Below the pieces are notes generated by a model. That model was not told where the DNA came from. It searched no databases and was given only the letters and a program-made list of their open reading frames with translations. This document shows, piece by piece, positions 1 through 50,233 of a stretch of DNA of 56,365 nucleotides. Made by a program: the position numbers and the translations under genes. Position 1 is the first letter of the stretch; each line of letters starts with the position of its first letter. Origin of the DNA: Patescibacteria group bacterium (GTDB lineage Bacteria > Patescibacteriota > Patescibacteriia > UBA9934 > GWF2-40-263); contig JBBTRQ010000023.1 in NCBI GenBank assembly GCA_038065075.1, positions 1-56,365 on the forward strand, given 5' to 3'.

Positions 1-2028
1 CATGAGCAGTGTCGACTTGTTCACTTGATACGGGATCTCACTCACAATGATCGCAAAGTTGCCCTTGCTGTCCTCCACGATCTCGGTCTTGGCGCGCACA
101 ACCACACCGCCTTTGCCGGTGGCAAGCGCCGCTTGGATGTCTTTTTGGTTGTAGGCGATGGCGCCGGTGGGAAAATCCGGACACTGCACGATTTGCGCGA
201 GGTCGTCGATGGACGCGTCACGATTCTGAATCAGATGCAAAATAGCATTGGCGACTTCGGTCAGGTTGTGCGGAGGAATGTTGGACGCCATACCCACGGC
301 AATGCCGACCGTGCCGTTAATGAGCAGGTTGGGGAGCTTGGCCGGGAGGACTTTGGGTTCCTTGTGCGTGCCATCAAACGTGGGCATGAAATCCACCGTC
401 CCCTTCTCGATGTCCATGAGGAGTTCCTCGGAGATCTGTTCAAGTTTTGCCTCGGTGTATCTGTAAGCCGCTGCTGAATCGCCGTCGAGAGAGTTATGGA
501 CAAATACCCCGGATGCCAAACTGAAGTTGTGTGTTCCATCGATTGTGAGGTCGTACACATCCTCGCGTTGTTTCAGACATTCAACGGCAACGACCTTGTG
601 GTTGCCGTTCAAGCTTTGCAACACCAGTTCGGAATTATTTTGAAAATACTTCCGGAGTCCAGTCGTCCACAACGGTGCCTTACCGTATGGATACAGGCGT
701 GGTCGACAAAACTCATACGTATCGACCGTCAACTGGCCACAGTCCTCGAGCGCTTTACGGCAAATCGCCAAAAATTTGCGCTTGCCGGTCGAATTGGTCA
801 GGCGATTCCGATTGGCTTTGGTGATCCGTTCATGCATCAGGGTTTGATATTCCGGCTCCTGCCATAGCCGTTTGAGCCGTTCTGTCGTGCGTTGACCGAA
901 TGCTTTACCGAGTTCGGGGTGCGCTTGTTGATAGTCCTTATTGATCAGGCTCAACGCCTCGCTCTTCATCATCCGATAGTCCTCATCCTGCCAGTTTTTG
1001 AGATTCCTCTGTGACATCCGCTCACTCTGTCGCTGACGATTTGCCGGATCGCTCCAAAAGAGCTTCCGACCTGCTGCAATTCGCCGGCGATATTCCGGAT
1101 CCTGATGTTGCTTGGCCGCCTGAGAAAAATGAATCTGCCAATGCTCACCCCAATCTACACGACGGACATTATCAGGATTGTTGTTCAACTTGTTAAAATC
1201 GACGTGGTGTCGAACGCGTCCATTCGACTTCCTATAGACCGCCGCCGATAAATTGTAATTGTCGGCCAGATGATGCGCCGGCACCCACTCTCCCGTGGCG
1301 TTCTGCAGAATCAATAGGTACCCATCGCGGTTCAAACGATCGACCTTTTCCGACAAACGGGAATAAAGTGGCATGAGTGACGTCCCCGGGTCGAGCCGTT
1401 GTGCCTCACAATAAGAACCATTTTTCATCATGAAACGATGGTCCGGCGTGCAACGGATCTCTTCGCCGTTATCCAAGACGACCTTGACCAGCCTGGCGTC
1501 ATGTTTGGTCATCCGTGGGCGTTGGATCTTTGCCATGGCGATCAACCCCTTGCTGTTGATGGTATATGTATAGTTCGTTTTACCAGCCTCAAACTCTTCG
1601 ACCAGCGTCTCAAAACTGACGTCGCGACCGTCCGTCAACCGCACCTTTGTCTCTTTGGTGAAACAACCGAAGTTTCCCTGGCCGCGGATGAGTGGCATGC
1701 GCATGGAAAAATCCTGCGCCATGCGCACCAAGGAATCGTACACGGCCGAATCTCCGTGCGGATGGTATTTTCCCAGCACGTCTCCCACGACCGCCGCACA
1801 TTTCCTAAACTTGGCGCTACTGCGCAAACCCGTCTGCCACATCGAATACAAAATGCGTCGGTGCACCGGTTTGAGTCCGTCGCGAATGTCCGGAAGCGCG
1901 CGGCCCACGATGACGCTCATCGCGTAATCGAGATACGACGTTTGCATCTCTTCGACGAGACTCTGTGACACGATGTTGTCACTCGGAGCGTCTGGTGCTG
2001 ATTCGATAAAGGGTTTCTTCTTGGCCAT
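1..2028 (-). CDS. gyrA: DNA gyrase subunit A, N-terminal part (runs off left edge), interrupted by an intein
   Basis: Absent from the ORF track because no stop lies in the window. Minus-strand translation from ATG 2028-2026 gives [63 protein letters not shown] / intein / [39 protein letters not shown]. The frame stays open to position 1 (676 codons). Confidence 0.9.
493..1665 (-). mobile_element. GyrA intein (391 aa) with HNH-type homing endonuclease module
   Basis: Begins with Cys ([13 protein letters not shown]), has TPDH (block B), and ends [15 protein letters not shown] followed by Ser. Removing it rejoins GNFG|SLDGD. The centre carries [27 protein letters not shown] (HNH signature) plus degenerate PEY/R-rich repeats. 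Confidence 0.85.
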
Positions 2029-3063: not shown

Positions 3064-3750
3064 TTATTCTTCCTCAGAAAAGGTGTCCTTCCAATATTCG
3101 ATTTCTTTCTTGACGATCTCCAGCTCCGGATCAGGTTCGGTGATCAAAAAGCCTTCACGGAACCGCGACACCTTACCCTTGATTTCCGCCTGTTGGTTTT
3201 CGTCGCCGCCCTGCGCGAGCTGTTCAAGTTCAGCAATGGCTGTCTGAATCTTGTCCGCCTCCTGCGTCCATTTGTCGACAAGTGCCTGGTACTGTACGGC
3301 TTGCTCACCCACGCGATTTTTCAAAATCTCGGCGAGCTTGTCCTTGGCGACCAAGATCCCGTCTTCGACTTGGTAGCGTTGCTTGGCATCCAGGGACTCC
3401 GTAAACAAATCACTCGACACGAGGGCTTCCAAACTCACACCCGCGTCGAGGTGCGGCTTGATCACGCCACGAACCGTTTCGTCGACATGGTCTAGCACCA
3501 TCTTTTTGAGCATCTCCTCGGCGGTCGAGCTGGTCAGCTCTTCATACGCACGACGGTAGGGATACTCCTTCATGCCGATCGTATAGAACGCGTGCTTGAT
3601 CGCCGCCTCATCGAGCGCCTCATTTGTTGCGAGGTCATCGTGGATCCTCTGAGCCTCCTCTTTGATCATGGGAGGGAGCGTCGGCACAAAGTGCTTTATC
3701 GCGTACTGAAATTCTTCGAGCATGGACTGGTGTGGATGCATACTGGGCAA
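3064..3750 (-). CDS. hypothetical protein (228 aa, helical/coiled)
   Basis: Long clean ORF with backbone composition. No motif recognised. Confidence 0.55.
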   Translation of the reverse strand: MPSMHPHQSMLEEFQYAIKHFVPTLPPMIKEEAQRIHDDLATNEALDEAAIKHAFYTIGMKEYPYRRAYEELTSSTAEEMLKKMVLDHVDETVRGVIKPHLDAGVSLEALVSSDLFTESLDAKQRYQVEDGILVAKDKLAEILKNRVGEQAVQYQALVDKWTQEADKIQTAIAELEQLAQGGDENQQAEIKGKVSRFREGFLITEPDPELEIVKKEIEYWKDTFSEEE

Positions 3751-3752
3751 AG

Positions 3753-4136
3753 TTAGACTGATTCTGTGTGTAGTTTAAACCATTCTGCGATATCTTCAAT
3801 ATCCAACCTATCCACGACAATCTTCACAGCAAAATCTTCGATGCTCCGTCGTGGGCCATTGAATCGGTAACCGTTGAGTTGGAGAAACGTGATGGCTGTG
3901 CTCATTCCCGTGCGTTTATTCCCATCGACGAAGGGATGGTTCATCATGATCGAACGTGCGTAGACAGCGGCTTTCTGTAAAATCGTCGGGTAAAGCTCCA
4001 ACCCAAACGACGCCTGAAATGGAAGAGCGGCGGCGCTGCGTAGCGAGCTTAGTTCACGAATCCCGTCTGACCCACCCGTTCTACGGATAACGGCGGCGTG
4101 AATCAGCACCATGTGCGCGGCCGTAATCTGTTTCAT
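3753..4136 (-). CDS. doc: Doc/Fic-family toxin (127 aa from MKQITAAH)
   Basis: Fic/Doc motif HPFVDGNKRTG. ATG at 4136 lies 1 nt after the antitoxin stop. The longer 184-aa ORF in the track is an upstream extension. Confidence 0.85.
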   Translation of the reverse strand: MKQITAAHMVLIHAAVIRRTGGSDGIRELSSLRSAAALPFQASFGLELYPTILQKAAVYARSIMMNHPFVDGNKRTGMSTAITFLQLNGYRFNGPRRSIEDFAVKIVVDRLDIEDIAEWFKLHTESV

Positions 4137-4137
4137 G

Positions 4138-4377
4138 TTAACGGTCGGCCAGAGATTCAAAGTCCTCACGATAACGCTCAAGAACATCCAGAGCGATAGA
4201 GAGAACTTCTTTGTCACGTTCTGAGAGAGACACAACGGGTTTGATGGAGACCGCACGTTGTGCCTGATCAAATTCAAGCTCAACCTGGTCGCCGACATGC
4301 AGGCCAAGATTCTCCATCGCGCCTTTGGGGATAGTCACCGCAGCGGATGTTCCGACTTTGATAATTTTCTGTGCCAT
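4138..4377 (-). CDS. AbrB/SpoVT-fold antitoxin (Phd-like partner of Doc)
   Basis: MAQKIIKVGTSAAVTIPKGAMENLGLHVGDQVELEF is a swapped-hairpin AbrB/MazE signature. The gene is coupled to doc. Confidence 0.8.
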   Translation of the reverse strand: MAQKIIKVGTSAAVTIPKGAMENLGLHVGDQVELEFDQAQRAVSIKPVVSLSERDKEVLSIALDVLERYREDFESLADR

Positions 4378-4638
4378 ACTAATCCTATTCTAATGCAAAA
4401 AACCGCTCTCGTCAATTTTACAGCTATTTGTCGGAGACGGAGCCTACGACCTGGTTAGCGATTCTGCATCTCGTTGACATCATAACGAGCGCGACATACG
4501 CTGAGCTTCCTCGCTGGGACCCCCCACGAGACGTGGCAATCCAGCCACAAAGGCGCCCTTAAGTGACCTGATCGATCCGCTGCGGCTATCGAGCTTAGGC
4601 GGTCGAAAAAAGGTGTCACGCGGGGCAAGGAGACGTCG

Positions 4639-5859
4639 ATGGCAAGTGCAGACCCTGTTCGAGTGGATACGAAGCGCCTCCAGTGGCTCCTGGAGCGTGT
4701 GACTGCGGGAGCTGACTGGATCTCGGACGCGCAGGTGGAAGCCTTCGGCCGCAGGCCGGATGGTCCCATCATGCCCAGCTCGCACATCGTGCTGCGTAGC
4801 GTCCGGCTCCTCGAAAGCTACGGGATGGACGAGAACGGCAAGCCGTTCATCAGCCCCGTCACGAACGGACCGGAACTCCCGGTCGTGCAGGTCGCAGCTA
4901 ACCGCGCGGGGGAATGCTTCCTCCTGGCGCGCTGCGCGAGCGGCTACGTGATGGATACCTACGAGCTCGAGGCACCCAACCCCCAGACCATCCTGCACTT
5001 CGGCACGTACGGCCACGAGACCGCACGCGGACACGAGATCGCCACGTACGACCTGACCAGGGCGAGCATCCTGGGCTTCACGGCAGAAGGAGTGCCGGTC
5101 ATGTCCCAGTGGTCCAGTACGCTTGAAAAGGGGGAGGCCCCGCGTTCTTTCACGGGAGTCTGGCAGGGCGACCAGCTCATGGAACACGAGAGCACGAGCC
5201 CGTGGGAGTCCGTCGGCTTCGCGCGTGTCAGCTACGACGGGACGATCCTCTCGACGCTGCGCAACGTGCGTGACCACGCCATCCTGCGCAACGGCAAGGT
5301 GGTCGCTGGCTCGCCGCCCAACCTCGTCTCCATTGACGAGATGGCCGCGACCGCCAACGGCGAGATCTTCACCCTGTCGCGTCCCCACTCCAAAGTGCCG
5401 TACAGCCTGCTCCCGTTCTACGACGCGGTCTGGCAGCAGCCCCTCGTGGTGGGGCGTGGCGCCGAGCTCTTCGACCTCCTCTCCACGCGCCTGGGCGTGG
5501 TCGTGATCGGCAGCGACTACCGTCGTGTACACGCCTACGTTGTGGAGTCGAACATCATCGGTGGCCACTACACCGGCACCGTCATCCACCTGCACGACCT
5601 AGGACCCAAGGACGAGTACCGACGCGGGTACACGCCGCTCTCGGAAACCGACTGCGCCTATGTCCGCCGCTCGCGTGACGGGATGGAGCAGTGGGCGTTC
5701 CGACTGGGCGGCGAGGGCAATGCCGTCTTCTCCCACGGCCCCAGCTTCGACCGCGTGAGCGAACTCTTCCGCCACGGCGACGCCTTCCACTACTGGGCGG
5801 TCGCCGACCGCTACCTCCACCTGGTCAAAATTCCAGACGTTCCTGCGTCGAACCTCTGA
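4639..5859 (+). CDS. hypothetical protein (406 aa) in a GC-rich cassette
   Basis: Longest ORF of a GC-rich block; the 371-aa antisense ORF and several others are shadows. AAGGAG lies 6 nt before the ATG. No family recognised. Confidence 0.6.
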   Translation: MASADPVRVDTKRLQWLLERVTAGADWISDAQVEAFGRRPDGPIMPSSHIVLRSVRLLESYGMDENGKPFISPVTNGPELPVVQVAANRAGECFLLARCASGYVMDTYELEAPNPQTILHFGTYGHETARGHEIATYDLTRASILGFTAEGVPVMSQWSSTLEKGEAPRSFTGVWQGDQLMEHESTSPWESVGFARVSYDGTILSTLRNVRDHAILRNGKVVAGSPPNLVSIDEMAATANGEIFTLSRPHSKVPYSLLPFYDAVWQQPLVVGRGAELFDLLSTRLGVVVIGSDYRRVHAYVVESNIIGGHYTGTVIHLHDLGPKDEYRRGYTPLSETDCAYVRRSRDGMEQWAFRLGGEGNAVFSHGPSFDRVSELFRHGDAFHYWAVADRYLHLVKIPDVPASNL

Positions 5860-5894
5860 CCCTCTCTCCGGTGTCCCTCGCGACACCGGGCTCG

Positions 5895-5922
5895 CCCGCC
5901 ATAGCTTCACAGCGACGGCGGG
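5895..5922 (+). terminator. CCGCCATAGC..GCGACGGCGG hairpin element copy followed by a T-run (likely terminator of ORF 4639-5859)
   Basis: CCCGCCATAGCTTCACAGCGACGGCGGG followed by TTTTCATTTT. Confidence 0.55.
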
Positions 5923-6132
5923 TTTTCATTTTCCGCCCATTTGTCGGTGGCCCCGCCTACGACCTGGTTGAAACAACCTCATCCCAATCTATCGACGTAC
6001 CAGAAGATCCTCCCATCATTTGCGCGTGAGTCGCCGATACGTTCAGGAAAAAGAGAAGGGAGACGATGACGGTGATGGTTTTTCTCATATTGATGATGAT
6101 GTTGTGTGTGTTCTGACGGATCCGGAACGTGG

Positions 6133-7260
6133 TCATGTCGCCACGATTACCTGGGGCTTTTCAAGTTTGCCTTTGTATCGCGCGCCAATTTGCACCGTTC
6201 CAACCACAGATCGTGGCGCCACACCATATTGCTTTCCTGGTTTACCAGCCATGGCATGCTGATGACTGGGATCGAAGATGACGCCTCGTTTCGGAACAAG
6301 TAGTTCGATCTTCGCATCTGGCAGGAGTTTATTCAGGAGCGTTGTAACAGCCTCCAGCCACAATTCTCTTGTCTCATCCGTATAGTCTGGTGCGGATCCA
6401 TCTATGTGGGAAAAAAGATGATTCTCGTCCAGCGGTTCTGTATCGTTCAACTCTGCAAAACCACGACCAAGGCGTCTAAAAATATTCCCGATCATTGAGA
6501 TGTTGAGTGTTTTGTCTCTTGTCCAATCATCAAGTATGGGTTTCATGTCGATATCCACACCTTGCGCCGTAAGCCATTTCTCGGGAAAATCGAACGTCTT
6601 TTCCATATCACGAATGAGCTCTTTTTGTTCGGGTAGTAAATTGGCTATTCTCTCATATTGCTTAGCCATTTCAATATTTGTTTGTTTATGCGGTTGTGCT
6701 TCTACCACCTCATTGTCTGGCTCTGGCGCGTCTACACTGGCTTTGCTGCCTTCCCGGGTCATCATGTACCACTTGATCCATTGTCGCAGGTTGTCGACAT
6801 CCATCCTATCAATGACGGTTTTTCGGACGGTCGGATCCTCCTTGAACATACTAAGCAAGACTGTCCGATCATGTCCGGCAAGCTCTTCCATGATCTGGCG
6901 GCGTCCATCCTCATCCGCATTACGTCCATAGTGGCCTGCAATCCACCCACGCAATTTTTGATCGTCCATGTTTTCAACAATGGCATCCTGCAAGTCCGCT
7001 TCCTCTTCTATCAGCTCGATTAAATCTTGCCTCTCGTAGGCCGCAAGCGCCTCATCAATCTCATCTTGTTCTCGGTCAGGATTCGTCTGCTTTGGGTCGC
7101 TTCCCCTAGCTCGCTCCCCCGCGAATGTTTCTGGTCGCATAGATGTGTAGATAGAAGTTATCAGAGACCTCTGCAAAAGATCTGTGTAGTCATCTTGCTT
7201 CAACCATTCAATGATCTTAGCCAAGTCTGTGAGATAAAGCCAATGTCGTCTCCGCTTCAA
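6133..7260 (-). CDS. hypothetical protein with GrpE-like C-terminal domain (375 aa)
   Basis: The C-terminus AKIELLVPKRGVIFDPSHQHAM..VVGTVQIGARYKGKLEKPQVIV resembles the GrpE beta-domain (FDPxxHxA..GY..G..RPA.V.V). The long acidic N-terminus is unassigned. The ORF appears to begin with TTG, so the start is uncertain. Confidence 0.45.
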   Translation of the reverse strand: MKRRRHWLYLTDLAKIIEWLKQDDYTDLLQRSLITSIYTSMRPETFAGERARGSDPKQTNPDREQDEIDEALAAYERQDLIELIEEEADLQDAIVENMDDQKLRGWIAGHYGRNADEDGRRQIMEELAGHDRTVLLSMFKEDPTVRKTVIDRMDVDNLRQWIKWYMMTREGSKASVDAPEPDNEVVEAQPHKQTNIEMAKQYERIANLLPEQKELIRDMEKTFDFPEKWLTAQGVDIDMKPILDDWTRDKTLNISMIGNIFRRLGRGFAELNDTEPLDENHLFSHIDGSAPDYTDETRELWLEAVTTLLNKLLPDAKIELLVPKRGVIFDPSHQHAMAGKPGKQYGVAPRSVVGTVQIGARYKGKLEKPQVIVAT

Positions 7261-7317
7261 GGGTGTACGGCATGTTGGAGGCGAAACCTCCGCCCCGCTT
7301 AGAGATTCTGCATCTCG

Positions 7318-7346
7318 TTGACATTTTGCCTCCTCCTGGCTACACT
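7318..7346 (+). promoter_or_regulatory. sigma70-like promoter of rpsA
   Basis: TTGACA-17 nt-TACACT, about 85 nt upstream of ATG 7431. Confidence 0.5.
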
Positions 7347-7430
7347 CCCTCCGTCATTAATTACTTAACCCCGCGTGAGCCCTCCACCAAAGCCTTGGCG
7401 ACGGTGGACCGCTTGCCGGCATATTTTTAT

Positions 7431-8579
7431 ATGACACAGCAGACCCAGACAGCAGGATCCGAGTTCGAGACACTCATGCAGGAGGGCGGTTACTTGAATC
7501 TTCCTCAAGTCGGTGACGTCGTCACCGGCACGGTCATCGGCACAGGCCGACGGGAAGTGCGCATTGACCTCGCCGGTATCGCCACCGGCGTCGTGCGCGG
7601 CAAGGAACTCTTCGCGGAATCCAGCGAGTACGCCAACATCGAACCTGGCTCCCAGGTCGAGGCAACGGTCATGGAACTTGAAAATGAGAACGGCGAAATC
7701 GAACTTTCGTTCCGCTTCGCTGGACAACAGAAGGCGTGGGAAGAAATCCGCGCCCTGTTCACGACCGCCGAGACGATCGAAACGAAAATCCTGGAAGCCA
7801 ACAAGGGCGGACTCATCGTCCGCGTGGGAACCGTAAACGGATTCTTGCCCGTCTCACAACTTTCTCCGGAGCACTATCCACGCGTGAGCGGCGGGGACAA
7901 GAACAAGATCCTCGAGAAGCTCAAGAGCTACGTCGGCAGTAAAATGAAGGTCATCGTCTTGGACGCGAACGAGGCCGATGAGAAGCTCATCGTCTCAGAA
8001 AAAGCGGTATGGGAGGATCAACAGAAGAACGTGCTCTCGCAGTTTAAGGTCGGCAATACTGTTGAAGGCGAGGTGACCGCGCTGGCGGACTTCGGTGCCT
8101 TCATCAAATTCGGCGCGCTGGAGGGCTTGGTCCACATTTCCGAGATTGCCTGGCAGAGAATTGATCATCCGCGCGATCTCCTTAAGATCGGACAACAGGT
8201 GAAGGCGGAGATCATCGGCATCGAAGGCAGTAAAATCTTCCTCTCCATGAAGAAGCTCATCCGCGACCCATGGCAGAACGTCTCCGAACGCTACAAGGTC
8301 GGCGACACCGTGGAAGGAACCGTGCTGAAAGTAAACCCCTTTGGATTCTTCGTGGAACTTGATCCGGAAATCCATGGCCTCGCCCATGTCTCTGAACTCT
8401 CCGACAAGCCCGTCACGGACGTGACCCAAATTGGGAAAGAGGGTGAGCGCATGAAGTTCAAGATCGTTTCGATCGAACCCCAAGAGCATCGCCTGGGCCT
8501 CTCGGTCAAAGCCCTCACACAGACAGACACTCCCACTCCAGAAGAAGTGAAACCAGCCACTGAAGAAGTAGTCACATAA
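7431..8579 (+). CDS. rpsA: 30S ribosomal protein S1 (four S1 domains)
   Basis: Repeated S1 motifs (GDVVTGTV.., VEATV.., GNTVEGEVTALADFGAFIKF, GDTVEGTVLKVNPFGFFVEL). The start is set at MTQQTQ; the track ORF from 7263 runs through the promoter. Confidence 0.85.
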   Translation: MTQQTQTAGSEFETLMQEGGYLNLPQVGDVVTGTVIGTGRREVRIDLAGIATGVVRGKELFAESSEYANIEPGSQVEATVMELENENGEIELSFRFAGQQKAWEEIRALFTTAETIETKILEANKGGLIVRVGTVNGFLPVSQLSPEHYPRVSGGDKNKILEKLKSYVGSKMKVIVLDANEADEKLIVSEKAVWEDQQKNVLSQFKVGNTVEGEVTALADFGAFIKFGALEGLVHISEIAWQRIDHPRDLLKIGQQVKAEIIGIEGSKIFLSMKKLIRDPWQNVSERYKVGDTVEGTVLKVNPFGFFVELDPEIHGLAHVSELSDKPVTDVTQIGKEGERMKFKIVSIEPQEHRLGLSVKALTQTDTPTPEEVKPATEEVVT

Positions 8580-46034: not shown

Positions 46035-46139
46035 GACTCACCCCTTTCGCTTGGCCACTTGTCTATAATAGAGCTAACCACGACGCACAACTTTGTACAA
46101 CAAAACACACCCCAGAGATGGGATGTGTTTTGTTTATGT

Positions 46140-46197
46140 CCTCAACTGAGTCTTCGACCCTGAGTCTATAGAAGGGTCGACTTCTCGGTTGAAGAGG
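46140..46197. repeat. attC-like imperfect palindrome E1
   Basis: CCTCAACTGAGTCTTCGACCCTGAGTCTATAGAAGGGTCGACTTCTCGGTTGAAGAGG. Confidence 0.8.
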
Positions 46198-46682: not shown

Positions 46683-46700
46683 GGAGCAGTTCTTTATTTT

Positions 46701-46742
46701 CCTCAACTGAGTCTTCGAGGTAACTCGATTCCTCGGTTGAGG
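46701..46742. repeat. attC-like imperfect palindrome E2
   Basis: CCTCAACTGAGTCTTCGAGGTAACTCGATTCCTCGGTTGAGG. Confidence 0.8.
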
Positions 46743-47469
46743 ACCCCGGCAGTCGACACGTGATTGGCGCTTTCGCACCACGTCGGCCGGGGCAGGTCGT
46801 CTAGAGGCCCCGGTCGACTTCACAAGTCGTGCCGGGATCCTCGTTCCCCTGACTTTTTGGCGCGCGCAGGGGGGGCGCAGATCAATGATCCCGCAGGAAG
46901 GACATCGTCCCTCCTTTCCTTGCTCAGTGCCCGGGTGATAACCTAGTGGGCAAAGGGATGAGGTCGCTCATCCTCCGAGTCGATGCGTCGACCAGCGTGT
47001 CGTTAACCTCCACGAGCCAGGAGTATTCAGATTAACCCGACTTCATCGGGAGGCCTAATACTGAAGGCCTGTTTTCCCATGCTTTGGCGCGACCCTTTAG
47101 GACGTTGCCGTCCACCGACGCCTCAAGGTTTCCCTCGAGCGGTTGCTCCAACAGGTTTGCTACGTACTCAGGTGCTGTCCCCTTTCCTCACGCTCTGTTG
47201 TGCAAACCGGCATAGTGCGCCGGGTTGTCTGTATTATCCGCGTCTGGGCGACAACTTGGTCTTACGACCCCCAGACGTTTCCTAGTGTTGCTCGGGCATG
47301 AACCCTCCTCCATACCTGGTGGTTCAGAACGTCACGACGACCAGGATTTCGTCGAGACACCAGACATCTCGCTCATGGTCGGCGAGCCACGTGTGGCCGC
47401 GGACCGAGAGGAGACGTCCGAAACGAATCACCCCGTTCGAGAAGACAACCATGCTCAGCATGATCTCCT

Positions 47470-47524
47470 CCTCAACTGAGTCTTCGACCCTGAGTCTATC
47501 GAAGGGTCGACTTCTCGGTTGAGG
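47470..47524. repeat. attC-like imperfect palindrome E3 (near-identical to E1)
   Basis: CCTCAACTGAGTCTTCGACCCTGAGTCTATCGAAGGGTCGACTTCTCGGTTGAGG. Confidence 0.8.
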
Positions 47525-47565
47525 AGCCCGGCGCGAGGACGGACTCCTCGGGTCGGGCGCGTGGG

Positions 47566-49446: not shown

Positions 49447-49487
49447 GACGTCTCCTGGGGGTTGGGTACAACTTCACCGTGAAGTTT

Positions 49488-49535
49488 CCCTCAACTGACA
49501 CGTCGAGATTTCGCTCGACGGTTCGGTTGAAGGGG
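49488..49535. repeat. attC-like imperfect palindrome E4
   Basis: CCCTCAACTGACACGTCGAGATTTCGCTCGACGGTTCGGTTGAAGGGG. Confidence 0.75.
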
Positions 49536-49546
49536 CGCCACAGTCT

Positions 49547-49816: not shown

Positions 49817-49848
49817 CAGTAGCAACCTCGCAAGAGGTTGTTTTGTTT

Positions 49849-49892
49849 CCCTCAACCGACGCGCCAAGCGACACTTAGCGAGTCAGTTGAGG
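49849..49892. repeat. attC-like imperfect palindrome E5
   Basis: CCCTCAACCGACGCGCCAAGCGACACTTAGCGAGTCAGTTGAGG. Confidence 0.75.
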
Positions 49893-50233
49893 ACCCCGGC
49901 CGACGTGGCGCTTGAGCGCCACGAGCGTCCCCGTGAGTACGAAATCCTCGAGGACGACCTGCACGACTTTGGCCGTGAGAGCCGCCTTGAGCGCTCTGTT
50001 TCCCGGCTTACTCTGGCAATGCATTGGGTCTCCTTCCCAACCAACGCTGGCTGAAAAAAAATTGGATGTCGTCAAACACCTGCTCGACGTACGTGGAGGG
50101 CAGATCGCAAATAACGATCTGCCCTATGCGCGCGTGGTCAAGCAAGAGACGACAAGCTACCATTTTTGCACGTTCTGTCAAGACGGGTGCTTGAAATATC
50201 CCATTATTTCAGCCGATTTTTTGGCCAATAGAA

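Follow-up and report, generated by a model that had tools for sequence, protein, structure and literature searches.

The ribosomal gene rpsA of a Patescibacteria group bacterium (G000; genome of 1.09 Mb, mean GC content 54.4%) lies within a stretch of 56,365 nt (contig JBBTRQ010000023.1, hereafter the window), and the subject of this analysis is the region directly upstream of it. This hotspot has probably taken up three modules with seams that are marked by relics of repetitive extragenic palindromic (REP) sequences, and 26 nt of the rpsA promoter appear to have been duplicated once, possibly forming a hybrid promoter for an acquired gene. An initial annotation of the window had proposed that the insertion of a GC-rich unit duplicated a 55-nt target site, including the rpsA -35 box, and that the distal copy was later split by 1.3 kb. 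Its two halves turned out to have separate histories: the right half is the promoter piece, while the left half belongs to a dispersed REP-type family found across the genus. Coordinates without a prefix are window positions.

A hotspot of gene gain and loss beside rpsA

Orthologous regions were retrieved through the rpsA protein from the same-genus genomes carrying rpsA and from two more genomes that belong to other genera of the family; the relatives compared are designated G002 to G008. Synteny with the same-genus relatives breaks at position 3738, at the start of a conserved gene of 228 aa on the minus strand, and resumes at about 7318, at the rpsA -35 box. The 228-aa gene lies 75-125 bp from the rpsA promoter in G003, G004, G005, and G008, and the DNA from 3742 to about 7300 is therefore accessory and forms a variable hotspot. 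Unrelated inserts of about 1.0, 0.9, and 1.8 kb occupy the same place in G002, G007, and G006, respectively. This comparison shows a genus-wide spot of gene gain and loss, and the insertion hotspot suspected in the initial annotation is borne out by the empty site and the different cargo of the sister genomes. The empty sites of the relatives contain neither half of the proposed 55-nt site. In G002, the closest relative, the last few codons of the toxin gene doc remain beside the 228-aa gene (L038:6830-6857 versus window 3742-3769), hence cargo, including the toxin-antitoxin pair, has been replaced at this hotspot.

In G000, the hotspot holds three unrelated modules, namely the doc/phd pair, a GC-rich beta-propeller gene, and a lower-GC module of two genes, and each of the three module borders carries one copy (A, B, or C) of a palindrome. 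The A, B, and C junctions are spanned by Logan contigs from eight groundwater runs of at least three studies without differences, and no alternative joints were present at these junctions in the contigs of the eight runs. An independent 135-kb contig from ENA (L141) is collinear at 99.07% identity, apart from indel noise, and represents the same population. The arrangement is real and fixed in the population, and is not an assembly artefact.

The promoter repeat and the hairpin family

The promoter repeat, here called R (TTAGNGATTCTGCATCTCGTTGACAT), is present at 4455-4480 and 7299-7324 with 25 of 26 positions identical, as the initial annotation had it. Its 21-mer GATTCTGCATCTCGTTGACAT is found at exactly two places in the window and in none of 100 shuffles, and no third copy of R was detected in the 1.09-Mb genome, even with seven mismatches allowed over the 26-mer. 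At both places the left end of R coincides with the 3' end of a hairpin, where identity between the two sequences jumps from 71% to 96% at TTAG, and the right end lies one base past the -35 hexamer. Beyond R, the two sequences are unrelated save for similar -10 hexamers at 17-nt spacing. The elements that carry the argument are as follows.

4455-4480, plus strand: first copy of R, comprising the rpsA promoter upstream region and -35 box (TTAGCGATTCTGCATCTCGTTGACAT)
7299-7324, plus strand: second copy of R, in the native rpsA promoter; TCGTTGAC is common to the G002 rpsA promoter
7318-7346, plus strand: rpsA promoter, TTGACA-17-TACACT (consensus scan)
4474-4502, plus strand: candidate hybrid promoter for the GC-rich open reading frame (ORF), TTGACA-17-TACGCT (read from the sequence)
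4415-4456, plus strand: REP-family hairpin copy A, core 4429-4456 (TGTCGGAGACGGAGCCTACGACCTGGTT); E 2.7e-6, the best genome match of a hidden Markov model (HMM) built from other species
5928-5969, plus strand: REP-family hairpin copy B, core 5942-5969; recovered by the HMM from other species at E 9.1e-5
7273-7300, plus strand: degenerate REP-family copy C (TGTTGGAGGCGAAACCTCCGCCCCGCTT), with a 5-bp stem

Both promoter strings read as the initial annotation gave them, and a copy of the rpsA -35 box does stand before the GC-rich ORF. A -35 box TTGAC(A/T) with a matching or near-matching -10 box (TACACT; TATAAT in G007) is kept in all same-genus relatives, and none of them conserves the 17 nt that precede the rpsA -35 box. 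Since copy C contains native rpsA promoter sequence, R at copy A was most likely copied from the rpsA side. R thus precedes both rpsA and the GC-rich ORF, which encode unrelated proteins, and TTGACA-17-TACGCT could possibly drive the GC-rich ORF as a hybrid promoter. A paralogue of the rpsA core promoter is also found on the minus strand of another contig (C29:23114-23162; about 36/47 positions, with a 16-nt exact match CGTTGACATTTTGCCT), where it precedes a GC-rich ORF of 566 aa (C29:21329-23029; GC content at third codon positions, GC3, 0.96) and lies 55 nt from a hairpin copy. Judged by this likeness, the paralogue supports a second case of rpsA-promoter reuse. As a separate possibility, we considered R as an operator: it contains the inverted repeat GAGAT-N5-ATCTC, yet the genome has no further promoter-associated copies, and this candidate was rejected.

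The left half of the proposed site is of a different nature. Its copies at 4426-4456 and 5939-5969 are identical at 26 of 31 positions, rather than the 24 initially counted; all five differences fall within the 7-nt block, as had been noted, and GCCTACGACCTGGTT is exact in both. A repeat search aligned A (4415-4480) with B (5928-5969) over 42 nt at 79% identity, and a gap-free alignment of 52 nt at 83% joins 7273-7324 to 4429-4480. Chance does not account for the match of either half. In the 28 nt to the left of TTAG, copy C is identical to A in register at 20 of 28 positions, and by a hand count it matches a G005 copy with a GCGAA loop at 22 of 29. Copy C therefore has its own hairpin contiguous with the right half, and the distal site was not split, contrary to the initial annotation; B and C are separate copies that bracket the 1.3-kb module.

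The motif TGTCGG-N7-GCCTACGACC recurs elsewhere in G000, at C9:4781-4811, C9:4049-4079 (a variant), C33:8464-8493, and C29:23205-23237. An HMM from which the G000 copies had been left out returned A, C9a, C33, B, C9b, and C29 (copies outside the window being named after their contigs) as the six best G000 matches, with E from 2.7e-6 to 0.003. These six significant copies are short imperfect palindromes, and all are intergenic, as in REP sequences. The exact G000 variant was absent from 72 other genomes of the family, and 185,579 species genomes contained 68 single scattered matches, which we take to be chance and not a donor. In a looser search, perfect-stem forms of the palindrome turned up in the genus, with the consensus (ATTTG or AACCAG)GTCGG-NGGCTNAGCCN-CCGAC(CTGGTT or AAAT). 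There are 10 core copies in G007, 7 in G003, 5 in G005, and 3 in G004, with none in the controls, and the variant differs per species.

An identity matrix over about 50 nt gave 65% for A versus B, 71% for A versus a G005 copy, and 76% for B versus a G007 copy. As A resembles copies from other species at least as much as it resembles B, the likeness of A and B reflects family membership and not a local duplication, and the left half drops out of the duplicated target site initially proposed. The hairpins are 33-37 nt long, and their 5' end reads ATTTGTCGG or AACCAGGTCGG. In folding energy, the G000 copies do not surpass shuffled sequence: they range from -3.5 to -5.2 kcal/mol (z -0.6 to -1.2), with copy A at the weak end (-3.5 kcal/mol, z -0.6); a G007 copy reaches -20.5 kcal/mol (z -9.5). 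A GTAG or CGTC tag is conserved at one palindrome end in REP sequences (Di Nocera 2013, PMC3733652). On the complementary strand, the G000 hairpins read GTCGTAGGC, which places GTAG inside the stem, and the G007 and G003 consensus is without GTAG.

The family is tied to a transposase in three relatives. G007 encodes a 221-aa ORF (L131:2411-3076; C48:5210-5872) matching PF01797 Y1_Tnp at 40.3 bits (cut-off 23), with the REP-associated tyrosine transposase (RAYT) model NF047646 as its only NCBIfam match, at 51 bits and below the cut-off of 80. The gene is flanked by two inverted copies of the hairpin family. Orthologues of 57% identity occupy the same locus in G002 (C12:1839-2498) and G005 (C16:4002-4625), each with its own flanking hairpin variant, and the RAYT-like gene is single-copy in all three genomes. 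These observations show that the repeat family is linked to a RAYT-like transposase in the relatives, in the REPtron layout described in PMC3116915 (Bertels & Rainey 2011) and PMC3337134; REP/RAYT biology is also treated in PMC5581495. G000 has no match to PF01797 or to the G007 protein. Its orthologous locus is empty, as C22:1 joins C4:49500 with a 2-nt gap in Logan contigs of two runs, and G000 either lost the RAYT gene or never had it. We read A, B, and C as orphan, decayed REP relics, a family of which G000 appears to keep six or seven copies.

A locus on C9 suggests how loosely such hairpins are bound to cargo. There, copies C9b and C9a enclose a GC-rich GNAT gene that has a promoter and terminator of its own (C9:4049-4811). 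The same GNAT unit is found at the same locus of G005 (C15, L145) without hairpins, with promoter, leader, and terminator conserved, and G004 (C44, L137) has no GNAT unit there but tRNA-Pro together with the C9a-orthologous hairpin, the latter just upstream of the same conserved gene. On this comparison, gain and loss of the repeats is independent of the cargo, which does not need the hairpins.

Two further observations concern other palindromes. At C38:14547-14580, two GC-rich islands are separated by a single hairpin of the G002 type (ATTTGTCGGACATCCGATGTCCGACCTAGTTGAAGAAAA). In the smc-rpsP array, the small units are set apart by longer palindromes of a different family, TCCTCAACTGAG..TCGGTTGAGGA (46139-46196, 46696-46750, 47468-47526, 49484-49536, and 49845-49900), and the outer ends of these palindromes (CCTCAAC / GGTTGAGG) are similar to the tails of the REP-type hairpins (CCTCAACCAGG / CCTGGTTGAGG in G007).

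Genes and cargo of the hotspot

The genes and associated elements of the region are as follows.

3064-3741, minus strand: conserved gene of 228 aa, the left hotspot border; aligns to all same-genus relatives up to 3738
3753-4136, minus strand: doc toxin, module 1; Pfam Fic/DOC, E 1.3e-16; TIGR01550 DOC_P1, 66.8 bits, above cut-off
4138-4377, minus strand: phd/AbrB-type antitoxin, module 1; PF04014 MazE_antitoxin, 30.2 bits; TIGR02609 doc_partner, E 1.2e-9
4387-4415, minus strand: phd-doc promoter-like site, TTGACG-17-TAGAAT; 10/12 matches in a consensus scan
4639-5859, plus strand: GC-rich ORF of 406 aa, module 2; GC 0.66, GC3 0.85
5868-5932, plus strand: 3' hairpins, with CCGGTGTCCCTCGCGACACCGG at 5868-5889, a copy of the C-run/ATAG hairpin family at 5895-5922, and a T-run after them
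5958-6089, minus strand: 43-aa ORF with a signal-peptide-like N-terminus, module 3; its 3' end overlaps copy B
6133-7260, minus strand: 375-aa ORF, module 3; GC 0.48; the true start may be ATG 7140
7431-8579, plus strand: rpsA with four S1 domains, the right hotspot border; Pfam S1, E 1.2e-46

The 228-aa gene has no Pfam or NCBIfam match, and the rpsA orthologues in the genus are 86-91% identical. In the first module, an antitoxin of the AbrB/MazE fold (4377-4138) precedes a toxin of the Fic fold (4136-3753) at a distance of one base, which is the Phd/Doc arrangement. The start codon of the 228-aa gene lies 11 nt from the doc stop codon, and in G000 this gene has presumably become part of the phd-doc operon.

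The GC-rich unit (about 4500-5940) has 65% GC versus the genome mean of 54.4%. Its 406-aa protein has no Pfam or NCBIfam match, and a first homologue search of 5.8 billion proteins returned the protein itself alone. A sensitive search disclosed a small unnamed family of 350-430 aa, with a best match of 40% identity. A confident structure model (predicted local distance difference test, pLDDT, 80; predicted template modelling score, pTM, 0.81) gave fold matches to generic WD40/beta-propellers, and the protein is predicted to be a seven-bladed beta-propeller of an unnamed family. The unit is absent from all relatives, which together with the distance of the nearest homologue upholds the initial annotation in calling it foreign. 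The gene has its own Shine-Dalgarno sequence and terminator-like hairpins, and the spacer 3' of it is a pile-up of small repeats, consisting of a private hairpin, the C-run/ATAG family copy, and copy B.

The C-run/ATAG family (CCCGCCATAGCTT..GCGACGGCGGG) is genome-wide, with at least 40 related copies across contigs and a T-run usually following. Such hairpins stand after many GC-rich ORFs, as does the window copy at 5895-5922, and a variant is located in the rpsA leader (7383-7407). G000 contains about 116 segments of at least 400 bp with a GC content of at least 0.63, amounting to 11.7% of the genome, and many of them are single genes with GC3 of 0.85-0.96. This composition suggests a large pool of acquired GC-rich genes in G000.

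In the third module, the 43-aa ORF would have 59 aa if started at ATG 6136, and it has no family match. The C-terminus of the 375-aa ORF is weakly GrpE-like (NCBIfam GrpE models, E 0.007-0.009, residues 308-373), and this ORF has no Pfam match. An Rfam scan of 3700-7600 gave no match at E up to 1. Away from the hotspot, window 493-1666 is missing in most same-genus relatives and present in G004; it is a gyrA intein, listed in the L141 gene table as Intein_splicing inside DNA_topoisoIV.

Explanations and comparison with known systems

The present sequence fits recombination at the hairpin edge, a single crossover in R, and a long duplication blurred by conversion. We favour, with moderate confidence, recombination at or near a repeat edge followed by selection for the -35 junction. 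In this explanation, which we hold to be probable as a whole, the hotspot beside rpsA would have gained three modules of different origin, with the decayed REP copies A, B, and C marking the module borders. A 26-nt piece of the rpsA promoter, starting directly behind the repeat and ending one base past the -35 box, would have been duplicated once and now lies beside copy A, where the duplicated -35 box meets a foreign TACGCT at 17-nt spacing and may form a hybrid promoter for the acquired gene. One breakpoint would have arisen where a repeat copy recombined at its 3' edge, and selection for expression may have kept the -35 junction.

Several observations weigh against this explanation. The TACGCT -10 box has 3/6 consensus matches, too few to pass the scanner threshold, and the start codon of the GC-rich ORF follows after a leader of about 135 nt. 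Copy C falls short of significance if judged by its HMM score alone (E 6.6). Of the seven G000 copies, six, among them all the strong ones, adjoin a flank with a GC content of at least 63%, compared with about 12% of random positions, and three of the seven are clustered within 2.9 kb at this locus. Two foreign units, the beta-propeller and the GNAT unit, also stand each between two direct copies. The GC-rich flanks, the clustering, and the bracketing are not accounted for by a purely passive repeat. Five G000 copies share the stem-breaking GCCTACGACC, where the C9a orthologue in G004 has GCCGCCGACC, and the shared variant therefore points to copying or gene conversion among copies within the G000 lineage, though the transposase is now absent. 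Lastly, searches with the rpsA protein, the R 21-mer, and Doc found no sister strain with an intermediate arrangement: no other record of the exact G000 rpsA protein was found, the R 21-mer is absent from Joint Genome Institute (JGI) metagenome contigs, and the Doc relatives in metagenomes reach merely 34-44% identity.

The layout could instead be explained in one step if R were an att-like core, with a 2.84-kb circle carrying the GC-rich gene, B, the 1.3-kb module, and C entering by a Campbell-type crossover. The direct repeats, 25/26 identical and exactly 2844 bp apart, do bracket all cargo other than the toxin-antitoxin pair, and the abrupt rise in identity at TTAG fits such a core. We consider this unlikely, given that the 3.6-kb region has no integrase (one Xer-like recombinase lies far off on C8, with a short fragment at one end of contig C39), that the unit is a compositional mosaic of 65% and 48% GC, and that the eight runs contain no excised form or empty site. 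R also reaches into the native rpsA -35 box, so that the circle would need host promoter sequence beforehand.

A broader and doubtful proposition is that REP hairpins are preferred breakpoints for the splicing of foreign modules, with crossovers at their 3' edge dragging pieces of native promoter before acquired genes. If true, this would explain the GC-rich borders of the copies as well as the two acquired genes with rpsA-promoter paralogues, and hairpin breakpoints would constitute a crude, recombinase-independent platform of gene capture and expression in very small genomes of the candidate phyla radiation (CPR).

The duplication of a 55-nt site by the GC-rich insertion, followed by a 1.3-kb unit splitting the distal copy between GGTT and AG, now appears distinctly unlikely. 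Copy A has both halves, B together with the right half at C would rebuild a full copy, and the locus is a proven hotspot; gene conversion, as suggested by the shared GCCTACGACC, could also blur an identical duplicate. Yet the left half at A and copy B are no more alike than unrelated family members, with differences in the loop, as expected, and the empty sites of the relatives show no such site. The hairpin of C is contiguous with R, so that a hairpin at the end of the 1.3-kb unit would have to be either coincidence or rule. The unit itself has no transposase or integrase, nor is there a transposase domain in 4481-7260. No insertion mechanism is known to make a 55-nt target duplication, and known target-site duplications are far shorter than 26-55 nt.

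Very unlikely, in our judgement, is a role of the hairpins as integron-like cassette sites with a crossover between G and TT at the 3' edge, moved by an Xer-like or unknown enzyme. An integron or cluster of attC sites lacking integron-integrases (CALIN) is defined by an IntI-type integrase or by attC sites of 55-141 nt with RYYYAAC...GTTRRRY boxes. The resemblance lies in three modules with three hairpins in direct orientation, the similarly bracketed GNAT unit on C9, the association of hairpins with compositional boundaries in G000 and G007, the R breakpoint at the hairpin edge, and tails (GTTAGCG, GTTGAAA, or GTTGAAG) loosely like GTTRRRY. Against it, IntI is missing: the sole full-length tyrosine recombinase is Xer-like and scores 141.7 bits with TIGR02249 against a cut-off of 265. 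The 33-37-nt hairpins are shorter than attC and without the 5' RYYYAAC, and the modules are self-contained, with their own promoters and terminators, and of mixed orientation. In G005, the GNAT unit occupies the same locus as in G000 with no hairpins around it, the empty rpsA sites lack them as well, about 100 other GC-rich segments of the genome have no such hairpin, and the family is demonstrably tied to a RAYT-like gene.

That the right-half match is a promoter-family resemblance or chance is scarcely credible: both copies do hold a consensus -35 box common to many promoters, but 17 identical bases lie upstream of it, where seven sister rpsA promoters share nothing with R, 100 shuffles gave no match, and the genome has no third copy or related operator-like site. 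Relatives carrying the GrpE-like gene with both half-sites, the arrangement that would have contradicted the initial annotation, were likewise not seen.

The duplication of the rpsA promoter piece at a REP-marked hotspot, our preferred explanation, is ordinary genome tinkering of known kinds; it involves no new insertion mechanism, and current ideas stand. It corrects the reading as a long target duplication and would make the locus a clean example of promoter reuse after horizontal transfer. One small locus, beside an essential gene, shows the renewal of accessory genes in an ultra-small groundwater bacterium, where the seams would be marked by leftovers of selfish hairpins and a foreign gene would have received a copied part of a strong housekeeping promoter. 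A REP/RAYT-type system is likewise recorded for this CPR genus, with its probable loss in one species.

Among known systems, REP/RAYT is matched by imperfect palindromes of about 33-37 nt outside genes, of low to moderate copy number and with a distinct variant per species, and by the single-copy Y1/HUH gene with inverted flanking copies in G007, G002, and G005. It differs in that G000 has six or seven weakly folding copies without RAYT, that the genus has 0-10 cores compared with hundreds in Pseudomonas or E. coli, and that the RAYT match exceeds the Pfam cut-off without reaching the equivalog cut-off of NCBIfam. With integron attC sites and CALIN, the locus shares imperfect palindromes between consecutive modules of a variable region and an apparent breakpoint at the GTT of the 3' edge; it differs in having no integrase, in short sites without R''/L'' boxes, in cassettes with their own promoters and in mixed orientation, and in a family linked to RAYT.

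Hybrid promoters form when the mobile -35 box of an insertion sequence (IS) element meets a resident -10 box. Promoter reuse in prokaryotes is documented (PMC3575422), and PMC6614815 and PMC11111574 report duplication-driven activation of transferred genes. Like reused or putative mobile promoters, a piece including the -35 box (25/26 nt) lies upstream of two unrelated genes; in contrast to them, the upstream and -35 half alone was copied, and no mobile element carries R. In Salmonella, REP-mediated rearrangement is reported to yield tandem duplications with join points in REP sequences. The G000 locus resembles these in that one end of R is the edge of a REP-type copy at both places, and differs in that R is 26 nt long and dispersed 2.8 kb apart rather than forming a large tandem duplication.

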